Shown: positions 5,892 to 28,007, counted from the first letter of the stretch. The stretch is 64,000 bases of DNA from Nitrosopumilus sp. (GCA_965197525.1 OZ240211.1:896001-960000), one strand, 5' to 3'. Notes: generated by a model from the letters alone, not told the origin. Numbers and translations: made by a program.

Positions 5892-6359
5892 TTTACGTTT
5901 ACTTGCATTTTGAATTAATGTAATCCGCTTGTTATTTCCATTAATTTTAATTCCATATTTTTCACTCGAAGTTTTACCGTCTAACGCTTGATGTTGCCTG
6001 AAATAGGTATGATAAATCTCGTAACCCTTTAACAAAACAGTATCATTTGTTTTTTTTAGACCTCGCATTATCTTTTCTTTATCTCTAATCTCATCGTTCA
6101 GTCTTTCCATCTTGTTATTGTTCATGTCATCTTGTAGATGGATATATTTGATATATGATGTCCTATCTGCACGTTTAGCAGTCCAGAACTCTTTTTCGTA
6201 AGCATCAGGATATGATCCTAACTCATCTATGATGAACACTTTAGATCTTGTACCTGTTACGTCCTTAGATTTCCTTAGACCTAGTGCATATTGATGAATT
6301 GGACAAACCATTAGAAAATCAAACGTTTTTAGAACTGCCTCAATGGAAAAGACATTCAT
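5853..6359 (-). pseudogene. C-terminal remnant of IS6-family transposase
   Basis: DDMNNNKMERLN...YFRQHQALDGKTSSEKYGIKINGNNKRITLIQNAS aligns by eye with the C-terminus of the intact transposase at 26604-27728. Confidence 0.75.
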
Positions 6360-6883: not shown

Positions 6884-8038
6884 ATGAAGTTTGACGTAGT
6901 GATAGCAGGAGGAAGTGTCGCAGGATTACTGTGTGCAAGGGAGATAGCATCAAGGAATTTTTCGGTACTTGTAATTGAAGAAGATTACGAGATAGGCACG
7001 CCTGAACATTGCGGAGGACTAGTGAGCATGGCAGGATTAAAAGAGCTTGGAGTGATTCCGTTTAGAAGAACATTTGATCACATGATAGAGTCAGCGGAGA
7101 TAGTATCTCCGAATGGAACTAGTTTTACCATCAACTCAGAGAAACAAAGAGTTGCAGAGATAAGCAGAAGAGAATTAGACAAACAGATAGCTTTTCAGGC
7201 CCAAAGAAATGGTGCGACTATCAAAGTTAGAACTAGTTTCCAAGAAAGAACAGAGACAGGAATCAGAACAAACAATGAAAAGATTGACTGTAATATCTTC
7301 GTTGATGCACGAGGGGCAGCATCACTGATACACAGAGACAGAACAGGAATGCTGCCGTCAGCACAATACGAGATATATGCTGACTGGATAAAGAAAGGAA
7401 AGATCAAAGTAATCTTCGATCAGATAAGATACCCAGGATTCTTTGCATGGATAATTCCATCTGATGAAGGAAGAGGAAAGGTAGGGGTTGCGGGAAGAGG
7501 AATCAATGTAGCTGAAACTTTGGATAAGATTCTCGAGGAACAAGGTAAACATGCAATCATAAGAAAGATCTTTGCGCCAATATGGATAAAAGGTCCAATC
7601 AAAGACTTCGTTGATGGTAGCACCACAACGGTGATAGTAGGAGATGCAGCAGGGCAGGCAAAACCAACTACGGCAGGCGGAATATTCACTAGCGGAATGG
7701 GTGGAGTGTATGCAGGGCAAGCAATATCAGAATTTTTAGAGACAGGTAACAAAAAAGATTTGGAAAAGTATCAAAAGAGATGGACTGCAAGATTTGGTAA
7801 AGAGTTTGACAAACAACTCCATGCAAGAAAGATATTAGAACGAATAGACAATGACACCATCGACAAACTATTTGAGGCAATTACACCTGATACCATAGAG
7901 GAGATCTCACAGAGAGATGACTTTGATTTTCATACCAAATCAATTATAAAATTAATAGGACTAAAGACCTCAATTAAGACTGCCAAAATACTAATCAGCC
8001 AAGAGATCAGAAAACTGCAAAGTGATAATAATACATGA
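6884..8038 (+). CDS. geranylgeranyl reductase-family FAD oxidoreductase
   Basis: GGSVAG Rossmann motif, EHCGG, YAWIIP-like and VGDAAGQAKPTTAGGI motifs. Confidence 0.85.
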   Translation: MKFDVVIAGGSVAGLLCAREIASRNFSVLVIEEDYEIGTPEHCGGLVSMAGLKELGVIPFRRTFDHMIESAEIVSPNGTSFTINSEKQRVAEISRRELDKQIAFQAQRNGATIKVRTSFQERTETGIRTNNEKIDCNIFVDARGAASLIHRDRTGMLPSAQYEIYADWIKKGKIKVIFDQIRYPGFFAWIIPSDEGRGKVGVAGRGINVAETLDKILEEQGKHAIIRKIFAPIWIKGPIKDFVDGSTTTVIVGDAAGQAKPTTAGGIFTSGMGGVYAGQAISEFLETGNKKDLEKYQKRWTARFGKEFDKQLHARKILERIDNDTIDKLFEAITPDTIEEISQRDDFDFHTKSIIKLIGLKTSIKTAKILISQEIRKLQSDNNT

Positions 8039-8297: not shown

Positions 8298-8477
8298 ATG
8301 TCGTCAACTATCTCATTACCAACGTGTTGCTGTTGTCACAGGCACATTATGCCTAATGATAAATGCGTAAAATTCAACTGTCCTAGTTGTGGCGTAGATT
8401 TAATTTGGAGATGTCAAAGTTGCAGAGAGTCAGCAAGAAATTATACATGCACTCAATGTAATTTTAGAGGGCCTTAG
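8298..8477 (+). CDS. DUF1610-like zinc-ribbon protein
   Basis: Hand translation [32 protein letters not shown]...WRCQSCR...[11 protein letters not shown]; typical position upstream of EF-1beta; missed by the ORF track. Confidence 0.8.
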
Positions 8478-8481
8478 AGAT

Positions 8482-8763
8482 ATGGCTCAATTACTACTAG
8501 TAGTAAAAATCCTTCCGTCTGGAACGGATGTAAACTTGGATAGCCTAGCTGAATCCATCAAGACAGCGCTAAAAGAAGGAATCGTCATGAAGAGACATGT
8601 AAAAGAACCATTGGCATTCGGATTAGAATTTATCAAAGCAGAATTCATAGTTGGCGATAAAGAAGGACAGATGGATAAATTAGAAGAATCTATCAGATCA
8701 GTTGACGGAGTAAGTGAATTTGAAGTACTCAATATGAGTAGAATGTCAGTTGATATGAAATAG
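8482..8763 (+). CDS. ef1B: translation elongation factor aEF-1beta
   Basis: EPLAFGL motif, 93 aa. Confidence 0.95.
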
Positions 8764-19312: not shown

Positions 19313-20813
19313 TAGAACTTATGAGCAATCCCAAAATATAAGAAAAAAAAACTCCAGTCACAAAGTCAAAAATAATAAAAATATTCCATACAACGCATCA
19401 TCAAGACGACATTCTCATATGTTTGATATTTTCATTATGCCATGCCTGAAATTCATGCGCAGACGTGTAGCACTGCAATGTGCACTGAACTAACTATGTA
19501 GCGGTATCTTGACTGGTGGCAACATTTGTCTTATCCCAGTCTATTACCGGTCTTGGATTATCATTCACAGGCGGTCCCTTCTCCATCTTATCCCACAAGA
19601 GCTCCAGGTTTACAAGTCCGGTTATGATGTTAAATTCATTATTAAATTCACTGACTGTTCCATTGTATGGGGCAACAAGTCTACCGTATCGTTTTAGCCT
19701 GCCAATACTGTGCTCTACCTTTACCCTGATGGAATTGACGTTGTGGTTTTCTTTTTTCTCTTTTGGTGTAAAATGTCTATGATTCTTGCTTCTCTTGTGT
19801 GGTTGTTGGGTAATTGTGCCTGGCAGTTCCTTTTCAATTCCCTTGTACCCCAGGTCCGTAAAGAGATGAACACGATCCTCATCAGGGATATCCTCACTGC
19901 ACATCTTCTCCCACCATATTCCAAATGGCAGTGGACTACTCTCTCTGAGTAATGTAATGTCGCGGATGGATCCCAAAGTGCTCTTTGATGCAGCCACAAT
20001 GACTCCGTTATCATTTATGCATACAGTGGTGTTAAACGTAAACTTTTTCTTTTTTCCAGAATATGTTATGCTTCTCATCTGGTTGTTACTAGGTCTATTC
20101 ACAGGACAATGAGTACCGTCAACCATGGCGATACCTCCATCAGGTCCGGGCATTATTTTTTTAAACTCTTCTTTTGTTTTTGCATTTGCTATATCTTTTG
20201 AAATGTTGCTGGCTGTAGGTAGCACTATACTCAACATAGAATCCATGATTTTGATGTATCGTGATACTGCAGCTTGATCCACTCCAAATAATGTAGCAAG
20301 GGATCCCTGTGTGGGATTGCCTTTTTTGTATATCAACGCCATGAGTAGTGCGTGTCTGAGATACAGCTTGCAGTGATTCCCTGCATCAGATGACCTGTCA
20401 TCATTATCTCTGAACAAGAGGGATTTGTTGTCTTGTTTCATGCATAGTGTTGCCACCATGCACCGAGTAGAGGTGTTCGATGAGATTATCAATAATGATG
20501 CAAAGATTCATGATGCCACATTAACGGATGTGGCCAAGTTCCAGTACCTGCTTGCCAGGGCAGCCTGCCCTGCAACTCCTGATTCAGAACCATTCCGAGT
20601 ATTCCAGAGATCTCGTTCGTGTCTGATGATCTCTTCCTGACGCTTGTTTTTTTCTCTAAGAATTTTAATCTCTTTTTGTAAACGCTTTATTTCTTGTTTT
20701 GACAACAATATGACTGGTATCTTTTAATTTTAACAGGTTAAATCATAAATTTTTGACAGCAATGTTAACGCATCTATGGCCGATCTGAGAATCAGGATTA
20801 CTCATAAGTTCTA
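19313..20813 (-). mobile_element. IS5-family (DDE_Tnp_4 / ISL2-like) element
   Basis: TIRs TAGAACTTATGAGCAATCC and reverse complement of TAGAACTTATGAGTAATCC match 18/19, the terminal TA probably being the TSD. Confidence 0.85.
19494..20708 (-). pseudogene. DDE_Tnp_4-type transposase interrupted by a 104-bp internal inversion
   Basis: MVDGTHCP, YSGKKK, DLGYKG and RVKVEHSIGRLK motifs; one in-frame TGA at 20508-20510 lies inside the inverted segment. Confidence 0.85.
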
Positions 20814-21452
20814 TTGTGAGTATCTGCAGAGGTTGAGATATTTGGTAACGCCGCGTGGTGTACGTTCTTCTATTGCCGACAATATGTGTAACATTCTACT
20901 CTCCGCCTAATCTCTCTCTCTCTCTCCCCACAACAGCATTCTTCAGACTAGCTAAAACTATAGTCAATATTGCAGTCAGAGAGGAGTTTGAGAATTGGAT
21001 GTCACGTATACAGAATCTGTTTTTATTGTTCTTGGAAATGTACTTGTCAGTATTGTTACTATTGTTATTATTAATATAATTTGCCATTATTTGGGGCTGT
21101 TAAGTTCATGGTAGATAATTCTTGCTGTTAAGGGTCGGTAGATGATTGTGATTTAGACACCACGTGTAGAATTTTGGATGGTATTATATCATCCTCGTTC
21201 TCATACTCGTATACTGTATCCAGAGTATCTGTAAAACCAGCGGTTCTTTCTGTTCTGACCATAACAATCATCATTATCCATAGTATTCTTTTAACTTTTC
21301 TAATACAGGGTTCTGTTAACTTATCGTCGCTTAATTCTTCCTGTTAACTGTCGAGGGGTGAGTGTTCTGTCGGTTCTGTCTAATAATGGGGATATGGAAT
21401 AGATGTCAGGGGTTAAACCCTGTTGTTAATTGTCAGTAGTTTTATGGTGATT

Positions 21453-22634
21453 TCATAGTTCTGTCTTACCCTTACCGAACTTCATGCCCTCTGCAACCAG
21501 CACGGCATTAAGTTCAGTCATGGTAAGCTTTCCGCCCTTCCGTCTGTTGCAGTTACCACAAAGTAGTTGAAGGTTTTTGTCATCATCCTGACCACCCTTT
21601 GCTTTTGGTATGATGTGATCTACCTCCAAATCCTTGAATAGATAATGGTATTTACAACCGTTGCAGTACCCATGTTGGATTCCGTATAACGTATGCTTGA
21701 CATCCTTGGATCGCCTACCCTTTCTTTTTGGTATATCCGTTCTTTGTATAACTTGTCCTGCGCTAGTAATGAACTTGGCAATTCCTGCATCTTTCTTGAG
21801 TCTTTGTTCAATCAACGAATAGGCTCTTTCTGATATATCGCACCCTATCCATTTTCTGCCCTGTTTCTCTGCTGCAAGACAATCTGTGGCACAGCCACAA
21901 AAGGGGTCAAACACCATTCCACCAGTGTAACTGCTGGCTTTTATGATTCGTTCCAAAAGTGCAAGTGGTTTTTGCGTATGGTGGCCAAGCCTTTCTGAAC
22001 CCTTGACACCAGATATGTCAGTCCAGATGTTCTACAAAGGCAGTCCCTTTGCATCATCAAGATATATCTTATAACGTGGAAGTCCACCTTTTTTCTTTGG
22101 GTAATGCAACATATCATTTTTTTCTAACTCCAACATAGATTCTAACGCTCTCTTCCAGATTCTCATATGCCCCTTGTATTCATACTCGTACCCTCCGCCT
22201 GACAGACTTTTAGCAGTTAATTGTTCATGGCTATAATATCCACGATCATCCTTGTTCTTGAAATTTTTCTTTTTGTATTCCTCCGAGTATGGAAGATAGA
22301 CATCATTCCATGTGTAGTCTCTGGTCTTGGAGTAAAACAGTATCTGGTCAGAAATCTTCCCGTATCTCTTGCTGTCATTGTGAGAACTGGTTCGTTTCCA
22401 CGTTATGTCGTTTCGGAATGATTCCGCACCAAATATTGAATCCAGTACCAGCTTGAGATAATGGCTCATTGTGGTGTCGCAGTGCAGGTACAACGAACCT
22501 GTTGATTTTAGAATTCTATGCATCTCCAAAATCCTAATTGCCATGTATATCAGATACGACATTGTAGATTTTCCTCCTACTTTGCCAGCAGTTCCTATAA
22601 TCGAATACAAGGATTCGTTGATCTCTGCAATCTC
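21453..22634 (-). pseudogene. 5'-truncated, nonsense-mutated copy of the DNA MTase-HNH gene
   Basis: Homologous to 24403-25830; lacks the DPPF motif region; CAG>TAG at 22032-22034; both ORF pieces are in the same frame. Confidence 0.9.
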
Positions 22635-22748
22635 GGTGCACTCAAAGGACAAACTCCAGCAGAATCAGCTAAAATCACGGTTGGCGGAATAAATCGTTGG
22701 AAAACAATTATAGAAAACGCTTCATTGCACAAGCAAAATTCAGTCTAA
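22635..22748 (+). pseudogene. 3' tail of a second IS6-family transposase
   Basis: GALKGQTPAESAKITVGGINRWKTIIENAS matches QSLDGDTPADRAGIRVKGDNKWKTIIQNAS of the intact enzyme; fused directly to the MTase breakpoint. Confidence 0.8.
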
Positions 22749-22756
22749 TAGAATTG

Positions 22757-22828
22757 TGATGGTAGTGGGAATTGAACCCACGTCGTATGGGTCGGAATCC
22801 ATACATCATACCACTAGACCATACAACC
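22757..22828 (-). tRNA. atypical tRNA-like gene or pseudo-tRNA (anticodon ambiguous, TCC or CCG)
   Basis: Cloverleaf GGTTGTA-TG-GTCTAGTGGTATGAT-G-TATGG[ATTCCGAC]CCATA-CGAC-GTGGG[TTCAATT]CCCAC-TACCATC-A; 8-nt anticodon loop; one U.C mismatch and one G.U pair in the acceptor stem. Confidence 0.75.
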
Positions 22829-22981
22829 AAAAATAAATTGCCTCCTGCTTTCCGACGAACTGTGCCCAGTCCAACAGGAGGTATGCTTATTCTAATCGGG
22901 TAAACCGACAGAACACACACAACAAGCTTGTAACATCATAATATTATATACCATATATAAGAATATTATTAGCCTAAAGAT

Positions 22982-23007
22982 TCAGCACCCGAAGATTACA
23001 CAGAACC
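22982..23007. repeat. IS6-type TIR (right-end orientation)
   Basis: TCAGCACCCGAAGATTACACAGAACC is the perfect reverse complement of 24321-24346. Confidence 0.9.
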
Positions 23008-23049
23008 TTCGATCGCAATCATTTTATATAACTATTCTAATACTTAGTA

Positions 23050-23637
23050 ATGACTTTTAAAATAATAAAAACAATACTGTTTACATCTTTGATTACTGCA
23101 ATGATTCTTCCATTTGGAATGGATTATGCATTTGCAGATCATCCAGACACAGATGTATGGAGCACTGATAGAGAATTTGATATTCAATCATCATTGAATA
23201 ACATATCTCATGCAAGTTTTACACCAGCTACAGATTTTGAAGACGCTGCAGACGTATGGAACTCTGTGAGTAATTCGTGGTGGGACTTTACAAGAGATGA
23301 TTCAAGTAATGATGTAGAAATTGGTGCATGGTTTATGGGTTGGCATATATCCACATTAGCTGAAACCACATGGTATGACAGTGGGGGTTACATGTTATGG
23401 GCTTTTATCGATTTTAACAGTGCTAAAGATTTTAGAGATGTAAATGTATCTCAAGGATGGATGTCTTATGACTATGAAACTGTTGCCATCCATGAAATCG
23501 GACATGTTGCTGGTATCCATGATCATACAACAACATCAAGCTCACCTATGATAGCTTCAATTTCAGTCAATACTGTAGATAGAACATTGAACAGCCATGA
23601 TAAAGCAACAATTAGGGGGATGTATCAAGATGAATAA
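23050..23637 (+). CDS. secreted metzincin (matrixin-like) zinc protease
   Basis: Signal peptide; HEIGHVAGIHDH (HExxHxxGxxH) followed by an SPM Met-turn. Confidence 0.85.
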   Translation: MTFKIIKTILFTSLITAMILPFGMDYAFADHPDTDVWSTDREFDIQSSLNNISHASFTPATDFEDAADVWNSVSNSWWDFTRDDSSNDVEIGAWFMGWHISTLAETTWYDSGGYMLWAFIDFNSAKDFRDVNVSQGWMSYDYETVAIHEIGHVAGIHDHTTTSSSPMIASISVNTVDRTLNSHDKATIRGMYQDE

Positions 23638-24199
23638 AAAACTATTACTACCTCTTTTGGTACTTGTGGTAATTCCTGTTCTTGTATTTAGTCAACCAGA
23701 TGCTGATACAATAGGGAAACAATTTGCAGTTGATAACCCAGGTATATCTATTGGTGTTAGTACTTTAGAAGAGGCTTTAACAGAAGAGCAAGAGATCAAC
23801 AGAGCATCTCTTATTGTTGAAGGAACTATACTAGAAGCCAAACCATACTGGAAGATTATCCATAATGATAAACCACCTAGAATTTACACCGAATTTACTG
23901 TTAAAGTAGATGATGTCATCAAAGGTGATATAAATTCTCAAACTATCACATTTGTAGTGGGTGGTGGTGATTTAGATGGAATAATTTCTAGAACAGAGTC
24001 AGTAGATCTAACTGTGGGAGAACAAGTAATTTTATTACTTGGAAAAGACATCTATAGTATATTTGGGGACACATACAACCCAATATCTATCTCAAAATCT
24101 ATTTACAAAATTGAAGATGGTCAAGCAATAAACAAACTAGATGATAGAACAGGCAACAAAGACGACGTAAAAGAGAGAATATCTGATCTATTAAGATAG
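23630..24199 (+). CDS. secreted or anchored partner protein of the protease
   Basis: ATG 23630 overlaps the protease stop; N-terminal hydrophobic helix; ASLIVEGTILE...IYTEFTVKVDDVIKG. Confidence 0.7.
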   Translation: MNKKLLLPLLVLVVIPVLVFSQPDADTIGKQFAVDNPGISIGVSTLEEALTEEQEINRASLIVEGTILEAKPYWKIIHNDKPPRIYTEFTVKVDDVIKGDINSQTITFVVGGGDLDGIISRTESVDLTVGEQVILLLGKDIYSIFGDTYNPISISKSIYKIEDGQAINKLDDRTGNKDDVKERISDLLR

Positions 24200-24320
24200 A
24201 TACCCTTATCTTTTTTTTATGAATATTAGTTAAAGAATTATAAAATAACATCATATGTCATAAATTGTGCGAATTGACTGCTGCAGGAATTGTGGGAAGT
24301 TATTAAAAGTGTTGGAATAT

Positions 24321-24346
24321 GGTTCTGTGTAATCTTCGGGTGCTGA
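24321..24346. repeat. IS6-type TIR (left-end orientation)
   Basis: GGTTCTGTGTAATCTTCGGGTGCTGA, perfect inverted partner of 22982-23007. Confidence 0.9.
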
Positions 24347-24402
24347 GATTATGAGTTCTGTTAACTTGACGGGATCTAACTCTTTCTGGTAAGTGTCAGG
24401 AG

Positions 24403-25830
24403 CTAGGATCCAGAACGCCCCTTGCCGAACTTCATGCCCTCTGCAACTAGCACGGCATTAAGTTCAGTCATGGTAAGCTTTCCGCCCTTCCGTCTGTTGC
24501 AGTTACCACAAAGTAGTTGAAGGTTTTTGTCATCATCCTGACCACCCTTTGCTTTTGGTATGATGTGATCTACCTCCAAATCCTTGAATAGATAATGGTA
24601 TTTACAACCGTTGCAGTACCCATGTTGAATACCGTATAGCGTATGCTTGATGTCCTTGGATCGCCTGCCTTTTCTTTTTGGTATATCCGTTCTTTGTATG
24701 ACTTGTCCTGCACCAGTAATGAACTTGGCAATACCTGCATCTTTCTTGAGTCTTTGTTCAATCAGCGAATAGGCTCTTTCTGATATATCGCACCCTATCC
24801 ATTGTCTACCCAATCTCTCTGCCGCAAGACAAGCTGTTGCACATCCACAAAACGGATCAAACACGATTTCTCCTACGTTACTGCTTGTCTCAATGATGCG
24901 CTCCAGTAATGCCAGTGGTTTTTGCGTGGGATAACCAAGTCTTTCCTGACCTCGAACATTTGGAATATCAGTCCAGATGTTCTGTAGTGGTACACCTTTA
25001 GCATCTTTCAGGTATATCTTGCGACGAGGCAGTCCACCCTTCTTCTTTGGATAGTGTATCATGTCGTTCCTTTCCAACCCTAGCATAGATTCTAACGGTC
25101 GTTCCCATGTCCTTATGTGTCCCTTATACTCATACTCATATCCCCCAGCCGATAAGTTCTCGGCAGTCAATTTCTCGTGACTGTAACGTCCACGCCCGTC
25201 CTCATTCTTGAAATTCTTCTTGGTGTATTCTTCCGAGTACGGCAGATATACATCATTCCATGTGTAGTCTCTGGTCTTGGAGTAAAACAGTATCTGGTCA
25301 GAAATCTTCCCATATCTCTTGCCGTCATTGTGAGAACTGGTTCGTTTCCACGTTATGTCGTTTCGGAATGATGCTCCACCAAATATTGAATCCAGTACCA
25401 GCTTGAGATAATGACTCATTGTGGTATCGCAGTGCAGGTACAACGAACCCGTTGATTTTAGAATTCTGTGCATCTCCAAAATCCTAATTGCCATGTATAT
25501 CAGATACGACATTGTAGATTTTCCTCCTACTTTGCCAGCAGTTCCTATAATCGAATACAAGGATTCGTTGATCTCTGCAATCTCACCCCACCATGCAACA
25601 TCCACATCACTAAGTGTCCATGTGTCCTTAAACTCGACACCTGCTGCCTTTGATCCTATTGGTGCAGCATAATTGTGTTTGGAATTGAACGGAGGATCAA
25701 GATAAATCAAATCTACACCTTCATCTTCCATACCTCTCATAACAGGCAGATTATCGGCTGTGAAGATAGTTCGATTTTTAATGGTCAAAATGACCACCTT
25801 GAATAACATGATTTGATTTGATTGCTTCAA
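24403..25830 (-). CDS. amino-DNA methyltransferase (N6/N4 family) fused to a C-terminal HNH endonuclease
   Basis: IYLDPPFNS (motif IV), YPTQKP and FDPFCGCAT (motif I), beta-class order; C-terminal CNGC...DHIIPKAKGG..NLQLLCGNCNRRK HNH; true start may be TTG 25788. Confidence 0.92.
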   Translation of the reverse strand: MKQSNQIMLFKVVILTIKNRTIFTADNLPVMRGMEDEGVDLIYLDPPFNSKHNYAAPIGSKAAGVEFKDTWTLSDVDVAWWGEIAEINESLYSIIGTAGKVGGKSTMSYLIYMAIRILEMHRILKSTGSLYLHCDTTMSHYLKLVLDSIFGGASFRNDITWKRTSSHNDGKRYGKISDQILFYSKTRDYTWNDVYLPYSEEYTKKNFKNEDGRGRYSHEKLTAENLSAGGYEYEYKGHIRTWERPLESMLGLERNDMIHYPKKKGGLPRRKIYLKDAKGVPLQNIWTDIPNVRGQERLGYPTQKPLALLERIIETSSNVGEIVFDPFCGCATACLAAERLGRQWIGCDISERAYSLIEQRLKKDAGIAKFITGAGQVIQRTDIPKRKGRRSKDIKHTLYGIQHGYCNGCKYHYLFKDLEVDHIIPKAKGGQDDDKNLQLLCGNCNRRKGGKLTMTELNAVLVAEGMKFGKGRSGS

Positions 25831-25862
25831 AAATATTATTGGAAGGAAGTACCCCTATTGTG

Positions 25863-26224
25863 GGTTCTTGGTTCTTGGTTCTTGGTTCTTGGTTCTTGGT
25901 TCTTGGTTCTTGGTTCTTGGTTCTTGGTTCTTGGTTCTTGGTTCTTGGTTCTTGGTTCTTGGTTCTTGGTTCTTGGTTCTTGGTTCTTGGTTCTTGGTTC
26001 TTGGTTCTTGGTTCTTGGTTCTTGGTTCTTGGTTCTTGGTTCTTGGTTCTTGGTTCTTGGTTCTTGGTTCTTGGTTCTTGGTTCTTGGTTCTTGGTTCTT
26101 GGTTCTTGGTTCTTGGTTCTTGGTTCTTGGTTCTTGGTTCTTGGTTCTTGGTTCTTGGTTCTTGGTTCTTGGTTCTTGGTTCTTGGTTCTTGGTTCTTGG
26201 TTCTTGGTTCTTGGTTCTTGGTTC
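25863..26224. repeat. perfect heptanucleotide tandem repeat (GGTTCTT)x51 plus GGTTC
   Basis: 357 bp / 7 = 51 identical units, read directly. Confidence 0.97.
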
Positions 26225-26230
26225 ATATCA

Positions 26231-26395
26231 TCACATACTCGGTTTTAGAATCAGTTTGTTTCCAATGATTTTAGCTTCCAATTCCTGTCCTTTGTTCCAC
26301 TCCAGTTTTTTTACTTCTTCCTTTGAAAGATTGATGTACCATCTTCGATATTCCTTGTCACCTACACGTCTGTTTATCTTGTCTTGTAACTTCAT
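26231..26395 (-). CDS. AbrB/MazE-like (swapped-hairpin) DNA-binding protein
   Basis: Hand translation MKLQDKINRRVGDKEYRRWYINLSKEEVKKLEWNKGQELEAKIIGNKLILKPSM (54 aa); below the ORF-track cutoff. Confidence 0.7.
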   Translation of the reverse strand: MKLQDKINRRVGDKEYRRWYINLSKEEVKKLEWNKGQELEAKIIGNKLILKPSM

Positions 26396-26409
26396 ATCTT
26401 TTAATTATA

Positions 26410-26474
26410 TAGACCCCTAATAAACAAATCGGTTTATTTGTAGGGGTCTAAACATTTATATTATTAGGGGTCTA
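26410..26474. promoter_or_regulatory. putative operator: three TAGGGGTCTA boxes
   Basis: TAGACCCCTA (26410), TAGGGGTCTA (26441, 26465); 14-bp perfect inverted repeat 26410-26423 / 26461-26474 between the divergent AbrB-like and transposase genes. Confidence 0.6.
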
Positions 26475-26603
26475 ATACTATTGTATGAAAAGAACTGCAA
26501 TGATGAAAAAAGAATCAAAGGGTATGGGACACCCAATGATGAGATTGTTACGATCTGAGTACTCTTTTCTGTCCCACTTTATAATTTTTGAGGTGTCGTA
26601 CCT

Positions 26604-27728
26604 ATGAACGCAAGACAGGCAAGAGGTCAAACCATTGTAGAAAAACAGGGTCAGATCAGAAGAATAAACGACACACAATACGAGATCAAAAGCCAAAACA
26701 GTGATTCTCTATACGATGTGGTTGGCACTGAGTTTGGATGGTCGTGTTCATGTCCCGATCATCAGTTCCGTAAGGTTTGCTGTAAACATATCCATGCAGT
26801 CGAAATATCAATCAAGATACATCAAAAGGTGTATGATGATGTGGTAATTTCAGAAGTTACCATTGACACGTGCAAATACTGCAAATCGGCAAACATAACC
26901 AAGATGGGAGTACGTCACAACAAAAATTATGACGTTCAGATGTTTAGTTGCAAAGACTGTAACAGAAAGTTTTCAATCAATTTGGGATTTGAGAAGATGA
27001 GGGCTACACCAGACCAAATCACAATGGCTATGAACCTGTACTTTAACGGTGAATCCACAAGAAAGACTGCACAGTCGTTGTTACTCACTGGAATCAAGGT
27101 ATCAAACGTCACCATACACAACTGGATAAAGAAATACGTTGATCTTATGGATAGGTATTTGGAAAAGATTACACCTCAAGTGGGTGAATCATGGAGGACT
27201 GATGAGATGTATTTGAAGATCAAGGGTGACAAAAAATACATGTTTGCCATGTTAGATTCTGAGACTAGATTTTGGTTGGCACAGATGGTCTCAGAACACA
27301 AGGGGAATGATGATGTATCGCCAATGTTCAAACAGGCTAAATGCACTGCCAACAAAGTGCCATCAACCCTAATATCTGACGGAGCTGCAAACTTTCATCA
27401 TGCTTGGAAAGAACAATACAAGGCAAAGAATTTCTTACACAAGGACACAGAACACGTAAGGCACATACATCTTGCAGGCGATATGAACAACAACCAAATG
27501 GAATCCTTTAACGGTAATACCATGAGGTTGCGTGAGAGTGCTACAAGAGGAATCAAAAAAGATGATTCTGTCATATTCAAGGGTATGCAAATCCATCACA
27601 ACTTTGTCAGACCTCATCAAAGTTTAGATGGTGATACTCCAGCAGACAGGGCCGGTATCAGGGTTAAAGGTGACAACAAATGGAAAACCATAATTCAGAA
27701 CGCTTCAATGGTACCTACCAACCCTTAA
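26604..27728 (+). CDS. IS6-family DDE transposase with N-terminal SWIM and Zn-ribbon domains
   Basis: CSCPDH...CKHI SWIM; CKYC...CKDC; WRTDEMYLKIKG, LISDGA, NNQMESFNG catalytic segments; stop lies inside the right TIR. Confidence 0.9.
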   Translation: MNARQARGQTIVEKQGQIRRINDTQYEIKSQNSDSLYDVVGTEFGWSCSCPDHQFRKVCCKHIHAVEISIKIHQKVYDDVVISEVTIDTCKYCKSANITKMGVRHNKNYDVQMFSCKDCNRKFSINLGFEKMRATPDQITMAMNLYFNGESTRKTAQSLLLTGIKVSNVTIHNWIKKYVDLMDRYLEKITPQVGESWRTDEMYLKIKGDKKYMFAMLDSETRFWLAQMVSEHKGNDDVSPMFKQAKCTANKVPSTLISDGAANFHHAWKEQYKAKNFLHKDTEHVRHIHLAGDMNNNQMESFNGNTMRLRESATRGIKKDDSVIFKGMQIHHNFVRPHQSLDGDTPADRAGIRVKGDNKWKTIIQNASMVPTNP

Positions 27729-28007
27729 CAGCAAGAATTACCTACCGTGAACTTAACAGCCCCCATTATTTTTTACCATTATTTTGTAGACAACGATACG
27801 GTAATTGACCGGAGGTTTCTTTATCGTATTTTTGACAACTTGAAGTTTTACCAAGCACATTGTCTTGATTGGGATCAGTAACAACACTACTTGAAAGAAT
27901 TACAAAAGTCACATTCAGTATTAAAAACAACCATCATATAACAAAGAGGTCATCTAAACTAGTCTTAGACCGATAATAATATACATGATTAACGGTGAAA
28001 TCTTGAT

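Follow-up and report, generated by a model that had tools for sequence, protein, structure and literature searches.

Does a single IS6-type transposase carry a load of other genes between its own ends, and has such a load moved as one unit? IS6 elements are the textbook "transposase-only" insertion sequences (ISs), and they move other genes only when two of them act as a pair. The question is raised by a 6.7-kb element in a 64,000-nt stretch of DNA from Nitrosopumilus, an ammonia-oxidizing archaeon whose genome is a single contig of 2.21 Mb. This stretch is referred to as the window (G000:C1:896001-960000), and positions are those of the window unless a genome position is given. An initial annotation, made from the sequence of the window, had described an IS6-family transposon that moved as one unit, together with a varied cargo. 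With a probability that we put at about 0.75, the locus is one transposon insertion made by an archaeal IS6-like transposase, and it is a nested composite of two modules, S (21093-24353) and B' (24354-27763).

That a transposon inserted here is directly visible. The element is bounded by 49-bp terminal inverted repeats (TIRs) whose arms are identical at 46 of 49 positions (Table 1), and the subrepeat GCTGTTAAG...GGTAG is present twice in each arm. Both outer ends begin with GGGGCTGTTAAG, which provides the GG tip and the internal cTGTt motif of IS6 elements. An exact 8-bp target site duplication (TSD), CATTATTT, of the length typical of the family, lies directly outside both arms; repeats and duplication are as the initial annotation had described them. 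The DNA between the two copies of CATTATTT measures 6,671 bp. The target was a repeat of 365 to 480 bp, with six copies in the genome including the occupied one (20812-21092 plus 27772-27970). When the flanks are joined with one CATTATTT, they are colinear with the five other copies over 365 to 480 bp at 85 to 93% identity, and the copy at genome position 1861003-1861364 reads ...TTTGT CATTATTT TTCACC..., where CATTATTT stands once, right at the junction. The paralogous repeats hold at most one CATTATTT, so the flanking pair is not part of the target repeat itself; given this single copy and the colinear paralogs, the 6,671 bp arrived by insertion, with duplication of 8 bp. The empty site that the initial annotation proposed to look for is thus supplied by paralogs in the same genome.

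Coincidence of an inverted repeat with a matching 8-mer, and no mobile element behind either, would have the AT-rich TSD in its favor and nothing else. Given the base composition, two fixed positions would share an 8-mer by chance with a probability of 2e-5; in a genome-wide search that allowed up to 12 substitutions, the TIR occurs in the 2.21 Mb only as this one pair; the transposase gene ends inside one arm; and there are paralogous empty sites. Coincidence is already refuted by the uniqueness of the TIR, by the empty sites, and by the finding, described below, that the same end bounds the same DNA in another genome, and we give it practically no credence. Public contigs were also compared with the left 5.5 kb of the element. 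One loose end after 21092 continues like an empty site, 1 nt off the right flank of the window and identical to no paralog; the contigs are short and the sequence belongs to a repeat family, and we read the continuation as no more than a hint that an allele or strain with an empty site exists.

The single intact transposase gene between the outer ends encodes 374 residues and does not stop until inside the right end. The protein matches Pfam PF13610 (DDE_Tnp_IS240) with 53.2 bits (cut-off, 27) as well as the SWIM family, with a weaker match to rve. NCBIfam transpos_IS6 aligns with residues 129 to 335 over positions 1 to 201 of the 202 in the model, at 106 bits; other NCBIfam families score far lower (IS1, 43 bits; IS481, 38 bits). 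Residues 90 to 124 match zinc ribbons of the IS1/IS1595 type, and a sequence search of the PDB matched no solved structure. As judged from these matches, the transposase is a divergent, N-terminally extended IS6-type enzyme, and the family assignment of the initial annotation is upheld by the DDE_Tnp_IS240 match, by transpos_IS6 as the best family, by the GG..CTGTT tips, and by the 8-bp TSD. Seven full-length or nearly full-length paralogs, plus fragments, were found in the genome with tblastn. A further fragment of a family transposase is present in the window itself (5901-6161; 48% identity over 88 aa of the C terminus). With one transposase, one pair of TIRs, a TSD, and passenger genes enclosed, the element has the makeup of a unit (cargo) transposon. 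The dimensions of a compact IS (0.7 to 1.8 kb, transposase only, TIRs of 15 to 20 bp) are exceeded both by the 6,671 bp of the element and by its core unit of 3.2 to 3.4 kb.

This core unit is module B', which has the usual form of its lineage: a left end, an MTase-HNH gene (a DNA methyltransferase with a C-terminal HNH nuclease), a small open reading frame (ORF), a divergently oriented transposase gene, and a right end. The left end at 24354 is in register with that of a related locus, L025, where it is functional and perfectly paired. The MTase-HNH protein gave Pfam matches to N6_N4_Mtase (5e-44) and HNH (1e-13), contains the motifs DPPF and FCGCAT and an HNH motif with CxxC..DH..N..CxxC, and thus unites the methyltransferase and nuclease domains of a restriction-modification (R-M) system. 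Translation probably starts at the ATG at 25809, and the nearest solved structures are M.MboIIA, CcrM, and DpnA. The intergenic region next to it is 799 bp long, versus 442 bp in L025, the closest relative, and it contains a perfect heptamer array, (GGTTCTT)x51.7, that is absent from L025 and from the sibling element described next. The array may act as a length-variable spacer that affects expression of the methylase-nuclease, and the 54-aa ORF beside it is a possible small regulator; small ORFs are found at the equivalent position in L025 and in the sibling.

The sibling, an element of 3,190 bp at genome position 699962-703151, has perfect 51-bp ends of a subtype that we call T2 (GGTTCTGTTAAC...). 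It carries an intact transposase 59% identical to that of B' and, again divergently arranged, an MTase-HNH gene with a frameshift. A pair of MTase-HNH and transposase genes is also present in the Nitrosopumilus genomes G154 and G007, with transposases only 41% identical. Judging from these comparisons, the recurrent mobile unit is the 3.2- to 3.4-kb module of transposase and MTase-HNH. A joint 21359->24355 in public contigs, with AAATTTTTG between the two positions, was considered as a deletion variant of the element; this was rejected, since the joint is that of the sibling locus.

Module S is a more complicated assembly, comprising the outer left end (subtype T3), left ends of two other subtypes, a deleted sister element (element A), and a protease cassette of host type. 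With the left end of B' included, five further IS6-type ends lie inside the element (21309, 21372, 22982-23007, 24321-24346, and 24354). Left ends in the same orientation are stacked behind an outer tip, at distances of 216, 63, and 33 bp here and of 59 bp in the sibling. The end at 21372-21403 is, from its sequence, the probable left end of element A. The MTase-HNH gene of this element is dead: it lacks about 75 to 80 N-terminal residues, including the DPPF motif, so that alignments begin at residues 75 to 83 of the intact copy, and it is interrupted by one TAG stop. Recent internal duplication of the intact gene was rejected as its origin, because identity between the copies is 87% and another species also has the dead one. 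At 87.3% identity to the intact copy, versus 99.6% between the species, it is a relic of a separate element.

The tRNA-like gene is part of the 3' region characteristic of the subtype of element A, a region that can be aligned with its counterparts in L025 and in three other IS copies of this genome. It has no close paralog in the genome, and T-arm-like stubs of it persist in two other IS copies. In L025, homologous sequence lies behind the transposase on the opposite strand (7122-7153 and 8446-8631). Rfam detected no tRNA-like gene behind the transposase at nine related loci at the gathering threshold; at L035, ARAGORN alone calls a tRNA at the equivalent place, and Rfam does not. A general association of transposase and tRNA is therefore not established beyond element A, L025, and the stubs in the two genome copies.

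The remainder of module S is a 1,313-bp segment between two facing T1 ends, which contains the gene for a matrixin-like protease and that for a 200-aa partner. Homologous two-gene cassettes are found in at least four other Nitrosopumilus genomes, with amino acid identities of 64 to 95% for the protease and 54 to 95% for the partner, and no IS6-type ends or transposase were found within 1.5 kb of them. The comparison identifies the cassette as captured DNA of host type. Both T1 ends that face it are of the right-end type, as would be expected had a T1-type element caused a replicative inversion. The left end of B' begins seven bases past the second of these ends.

Much of the load listed in the initial annotation is therefore present: the intact and the dead MTase-HNH genes, the heptamer array, the tRNA-like gene, and the protease pair, with a hydrophobic N terminus on the one product and a signal-like N terminus on the other. 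The "AbrB-like regulator" survives as an ORF, with a family match that stays below threshold. The element was also right as an insertion; what has to be given up is the idea of a single coherent cargo set, since the load sits in a nested composite with five further ends.

Whether the composite moved whole is best addressed by a second genome, G153, from another Nitrosopumilus species. It holds 21093-23009 and 23413-24353 at 99.6 to 99.8% identity, that is, module S without B'. The boundaries of the match are exact, at the tip of the outer T3 left end on one side and at 24353 on the other, and the flanks are unrelated to those of the window, which places module S at a different site. In G153, 24353 is followed by another IS6-type element, whose left end is in register with 24354. 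In a second study, contigs from two runs have the G153 form with the same loose ends, and the 24353/24354 junction of the window is bridged by a contig from the source-like run X1. G153 has also lost 405 bp, including the 5' part of the protease gene, in a deletion whose start coincides with the T1 tip (23007); its position is a hint of intramolecular replicative transposition from a still-recognizable end. The occurrence of module S elsewhere with an exact T3 boundary indicates that it was mobilized attached to a T3 end, which supports movement as a unit short of proving it. We consider it probable, from this comparison, that the whole 6.7 kb moved as one unit. The corresponding claim of the initial annotation is likely, short of being shown: there is no second 6.7-kb copy, and in G153 module S exists without B'.

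Several observations weigh against this picture. The complete 6.7-kb unit was found nowhere else, and across 401 Nitrosopumilaceae genomes the T3 end is confined to that of the window (as a pair) and to G153 (left end only). An exact scan of metagenome contigs with a 29-base T3 core gave 0 matches, and in G153 the 8 kb that follow module S on the right contain neither a T3 right end nor a matching 8-mer. The NCBIfam IS6 score of 106 bits is below the curated equivalog cut-off of 125. No TSD was found for the sibling, nor did any internal piece that was checked (21309..23007, 21372..23007, and 24354..27763) have one of its own; because the internal elements lack their own TSDs, the order of assembly is not reconstructable. 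Finally, a similar arrangement of T1 site, spacer, and CTGTTAAC recurs at genome position 1610404, and the stacked ends could in part be long multisite ends and not separate insertions.

Some of these points are what would be expected had the element grown in place. A T3 element of 3.4 to 3.6 kb, made of the outer left end and B', would have inserted and produced the TSD, and the content of module S would have been added later by nested insertions and rearrangements, so that the 6.7 kb never moved whole. The canonical units of the lineage are indeed 3 to 4 kb, and the five internal ends attest to repeated insertion activity, as well as there being no second 6.7-kb copy. This history does not readily account for module S with a precise T3 boundary at a different site in another species, at 99.6 to 99.8% identity, nor for internal pieces without TSDs; mobilization of module S with the T3 left end makes growth in place the less likely reading, and we regard it as unlikely. 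The other possibility is an IS26-style event around the protease cassette, be it a cointegrate, the footprint of a translocatable unit, or a pseudo-compound transposon, in which two direct copies flank the cassette and a single TSD results from replicative insertion of "element plus cassette." Element A and B' do lie in direct orientation around the cassette, with the TSD outside all of them as the cointegrate model has it (PMC7986276), and the cassette is host-type DNA faced by two T1 ends that are identical at 26 of 26 positions. The two flanking elements are not the identical copies that such an event calls for, however: their MTase-HNH genes are 87% identical and their left ends differ, and element A has a T1-type 3' region with the tRNA-like gene, whereas the T3 end of B' overlaps the transposase stop. 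The facing T1 ends, both of right type, fit a replicative inversion by a T1-type element better than direct repeats. An IS26-style origin appears improbable, even more so than growth in place. A composite that moved by its outer T3 ends is the reading that we carry forward.

Table 1. Features of the 6.7-kb element, in order along the window
Feature	Position	Strand	Evidence or remark
Left TSD, CATTATTT	21085..21092	.	Paralogous empty site has one copy
Outer left end "T3," 49 bp, two GCTGTTAAG..GGTAG	21093..21141	+	Bounds module S in G153, no mismatches
Stacked left end "T2"	21309..21359	+	44/51 to perfect TIR of sibling (genome 699962-703151)
Stacked left end T1b	21372..21403	+	Like ends of 1.97-kb IS at genome 746475-748444
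Dead MTase-HNH of element A	21453..22652	-	87.3% nucleotide identity to intact copy
Transposase C-terminal stub, 30 aa	22637..22727	+	60% to intact transposase; fused to dead MTase-HNH by internal deletion
tRNA-like gene, Gly-UCC-like, one acceptor mismatch	22757..22828	-	Rfam tRNA, 48.6 bits
Right end "T1" of element A, tip 23007	22982..23007	-	405-bp deletion in G153 starts at this tip
Matrixin-like (Peptidase_M10) metalloprotease	23050..23637	+	Hydrophobic N terminus, HEIGH motif
200-aa partner ORF	23597..24199	+	Signal-like N terminus, no family match
Second T1-type end, tip toward protease cassette, 26-33 bp remaining	24321..24346	+	26/26 to 22982-23007, inverted
Own left end of B'	24354..24404	+	In register with functional left end of L025 and inner left end of 3.2-kb sibling
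Intact beta-class N6/N4 DNA methyltransferase with C-terminal HNH nuclease	24403..25830	-	Pfam
Perfect (GGTTCTT)x51.7 array	25863..26224	.	100% matches; between 54-aa ORF and MTase-HNH start
54-aa ORF	26231..26395	-	Upstream of MTase-HNH; sub-threshold MazE/AbrB match, E 0.003
Transposase, 374 aa	26604..27728	+	SWIM zinc finger, zinc ribbon, helix-turn-helix, IS6/IS240-type DDE core
Outer right end "T3"	27715..27763	-	46/49 to left end
Right TSD, CATTATTT	27764..27771	.	Sequence

A scheme that links these observations would start with a transposase that binds the two subrepeats of each 49-bp end. Related elements would have landed at, or just inside, each other's left ends, and subsequent deletions would have produced the composite, which would then have moved whole by means of its outer pair of ends. 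Replicative transposition of the IS6 kind, by cointegrate or copy-in, would yield the 8-bp duplications, and intramolecular replicative strand transfer would yield deletions and inversions adjacent to ends. The stacked left ends would fit such a preference for resident ends, or the sequence just inside them, as insertion sites, with deletions coming later. MTase-HNH is proposed to be a self-protecting nuclease, a one-chain R-M module that would spare methylated DNA and cut unmodified DNA. It would thereby make loss of the element costly and so stabilize it, and it may add phage defense to the host. We infer this role by analogy with relatives, which carry classical pairs of restriction enzyme and methylase in the same position.

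The insertion lies 236 bp upstream of a 3,490-aa ORF, probably that of a surface protein. The 280 bp beyond the target repeat, which extend into the start of this ORF, form another repeat, with further copies at genome positions 983104, 1460330, and 48311. On the left, contigs from runs X1 and X3 have joints between opposite strands at 20450/20558 and 20455/20559, inside an ORF (19494-20492) with near-identical copies at genome positions 118310 and 2194016; the joints indicate that other copies or molecules carry a segment of about 104 bp (window 20449-20560) in inverted orientation.

The transposase is one of a large group. More than 1,000 relatives were found at E<=1e-30, the best of them 80% identical, and a genome scan gave 79 loci, nearly all from Nitrosopumilaceae and other Nitrososphaerota and a few from Bathyarchaeia and Thermoplasmata. 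Most of the 79 have no MTase detectable with the queries used, or no ends that could be paired. Relatives with clear paired ends are 2.0 to 4.6 kb long, and four of them (L035, L037, L045, and L106) have exact 8-bp TSDs. Their cargo was always upstream of the transposase, and in a sample of the best transposase matches, which is not a census, it was frequently an R-M system. Restriction enzymes accompanied by a methylase are of the CfrBI type (L026; 3,911 bp with perfect 64-bp ends), BsaWI type (L033), MunI type with an MT-A70 methylase (L035), HinP1I type with a D12 methylase (L036), and MvaI/BcnI type (L045); a PD-(D/E)XK nuclease with a methylase (L042), an 821-aa fusion of HSDR_N and N6_Mtase (L061), and GmrSD_N-HNH with a fragment of an EcoRI methylase (L037) were also found. 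The TIR-bounded relatives with cargo of these kinds measure 2.8 to 4.6 kb. MTase-HNH itself is the cargo at four loci (L025, L041, L044, and L057), and a methylase with an unknown ORF at three (L029, L032, and L047). One locus (L106) has an unknown 328-aa ORF, and one (L104) has no cargo.

Three further cases concern cargo and its carriers. The CfrBI-type transposon (L026, 3260-7170; also L027/L040), whose transposase is 77% identical to that of the window, is present in one sample both on a 135-kb contig, where its perfect 64-bp ends are flanked by the 6-bp repeat GTGAAA, and on a 2.04-Mb chromosome, where its outer ends are truncated. The gene pair that is the cargo of L037 is found in the genome of the window at L110 (1514-3561; G000:C1:581513-583560), as GmrSD_N-HNH with a full EcoRI-type methylase, beside a truncated transposase paralog of 53% identity. 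The same genome also contains three 1.33-kb elements with IS6-type T1 ends (GGTTCTGTGTAATCTTCGGGTG...), at G000:C1:724290-725621 (L108, 291-1622), 838811-840157, and 1567235-1568566, two of which have exact 8-bp TSDs (TTTTTGGA and CAGCCCTT). They have no IS6 transposase and encode a 399-aa TnpB-like protein (Cas12f1-like_TNB, 3e-19; RuvC). A TnpB-like gene between T1 ends without a transposase suggests that TnpB is the cargo of a nonautonomous IS6-type element, presumably moved in trans by T1-type transposases.

We suggest, tentatively and at somewhat less than even odds, that the lineage is a dedicated R-M vehicle whose members target resident relatives, inserting precisely at their tips or just inside their ends. 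If true, end-targeted insertion would give the lineage an inherent means of stacking, exchanging, and capturing modules. It would explain why different elements abut the identical nucleotide (24353/24354) in two species, and how a host protease cassette and a tRNA-like gene came to be mobile. Here and in many relatives from ammonia-oxidizing and other archaea, a single IS6-type transposase carries an R-M system inside its own long ends, a simple route by which such systems could spread in archaea and one that would help to explain the patchy distribution of methylases in Nitrosopumilus. The locus itself is a snapshot of nesting, decay, trapping of host genes, and exchange between species of a 3.3-kb module that is 99.7% identical in two of them. 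Elements of this kind might also be put to use as natural, compact cargo transposons, for the genetics of archaea in which tools are currently lacking.

How does the element compare with known systems? A full-text literature search returned no description of archaeal IS6-type elements with R-M cargo, in agreement with the initial annotation, which knew of none with such a load. A survey of thaumarchaeal mobile elements (PMC6563490) treats IS-like transposons as elements of one or two genes, and R-M cargo is not described there; a review of the IS6 family (Varani et al. 2021, PMC7986276) gives TIRs of 15 to 20 bp, places zinc-finger transposases in clostridia, and lists one member with a passenger gene, ISDsp3. 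With the IS6/IS26 family (IS26, IS257, and IS6100; PMC7986276) the element shares the IS6/IS240-type DDE core with an upstream helix-turn-helix, tips of GG and then CTGTT, the 8-bp duplication, and a single transposase gene that runs at its 3' end into the right end; the end-adjacent deletion fits the replicative intramolecular transposition of that family. It differs in that the ends of the lineage are 49 to 64 bp long, with two or more subrepeats, versus 15 to 20 bp in the family, and in its host, an ammonia-oxidizing archaeon. Its 374-aa transposase has a SWIM finger and a zinc ribbon and scores below the curated NCBIfam cut-off, and its elements of 3.2 to 6.7 kb carry cargo inside their own ends. 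The clostridial IS6 clades h and i (the ISCpe7 group; PMC7986276), set against the element by description only, resemble it in a transposase of 340 to 450 aa with an N-terminal zinc-finger extension; unlike it, they are bacterial and cargo-free, with short TIRs. Defense or addiction modules inside a transposon are familiar from Tn7-like elements (Benler et al. 2021, PMC8649781). Here, in contrast, the carrier is a much smaller element of an IS6-like, one-protein branch, and its cargo is almost always a single R-M system.

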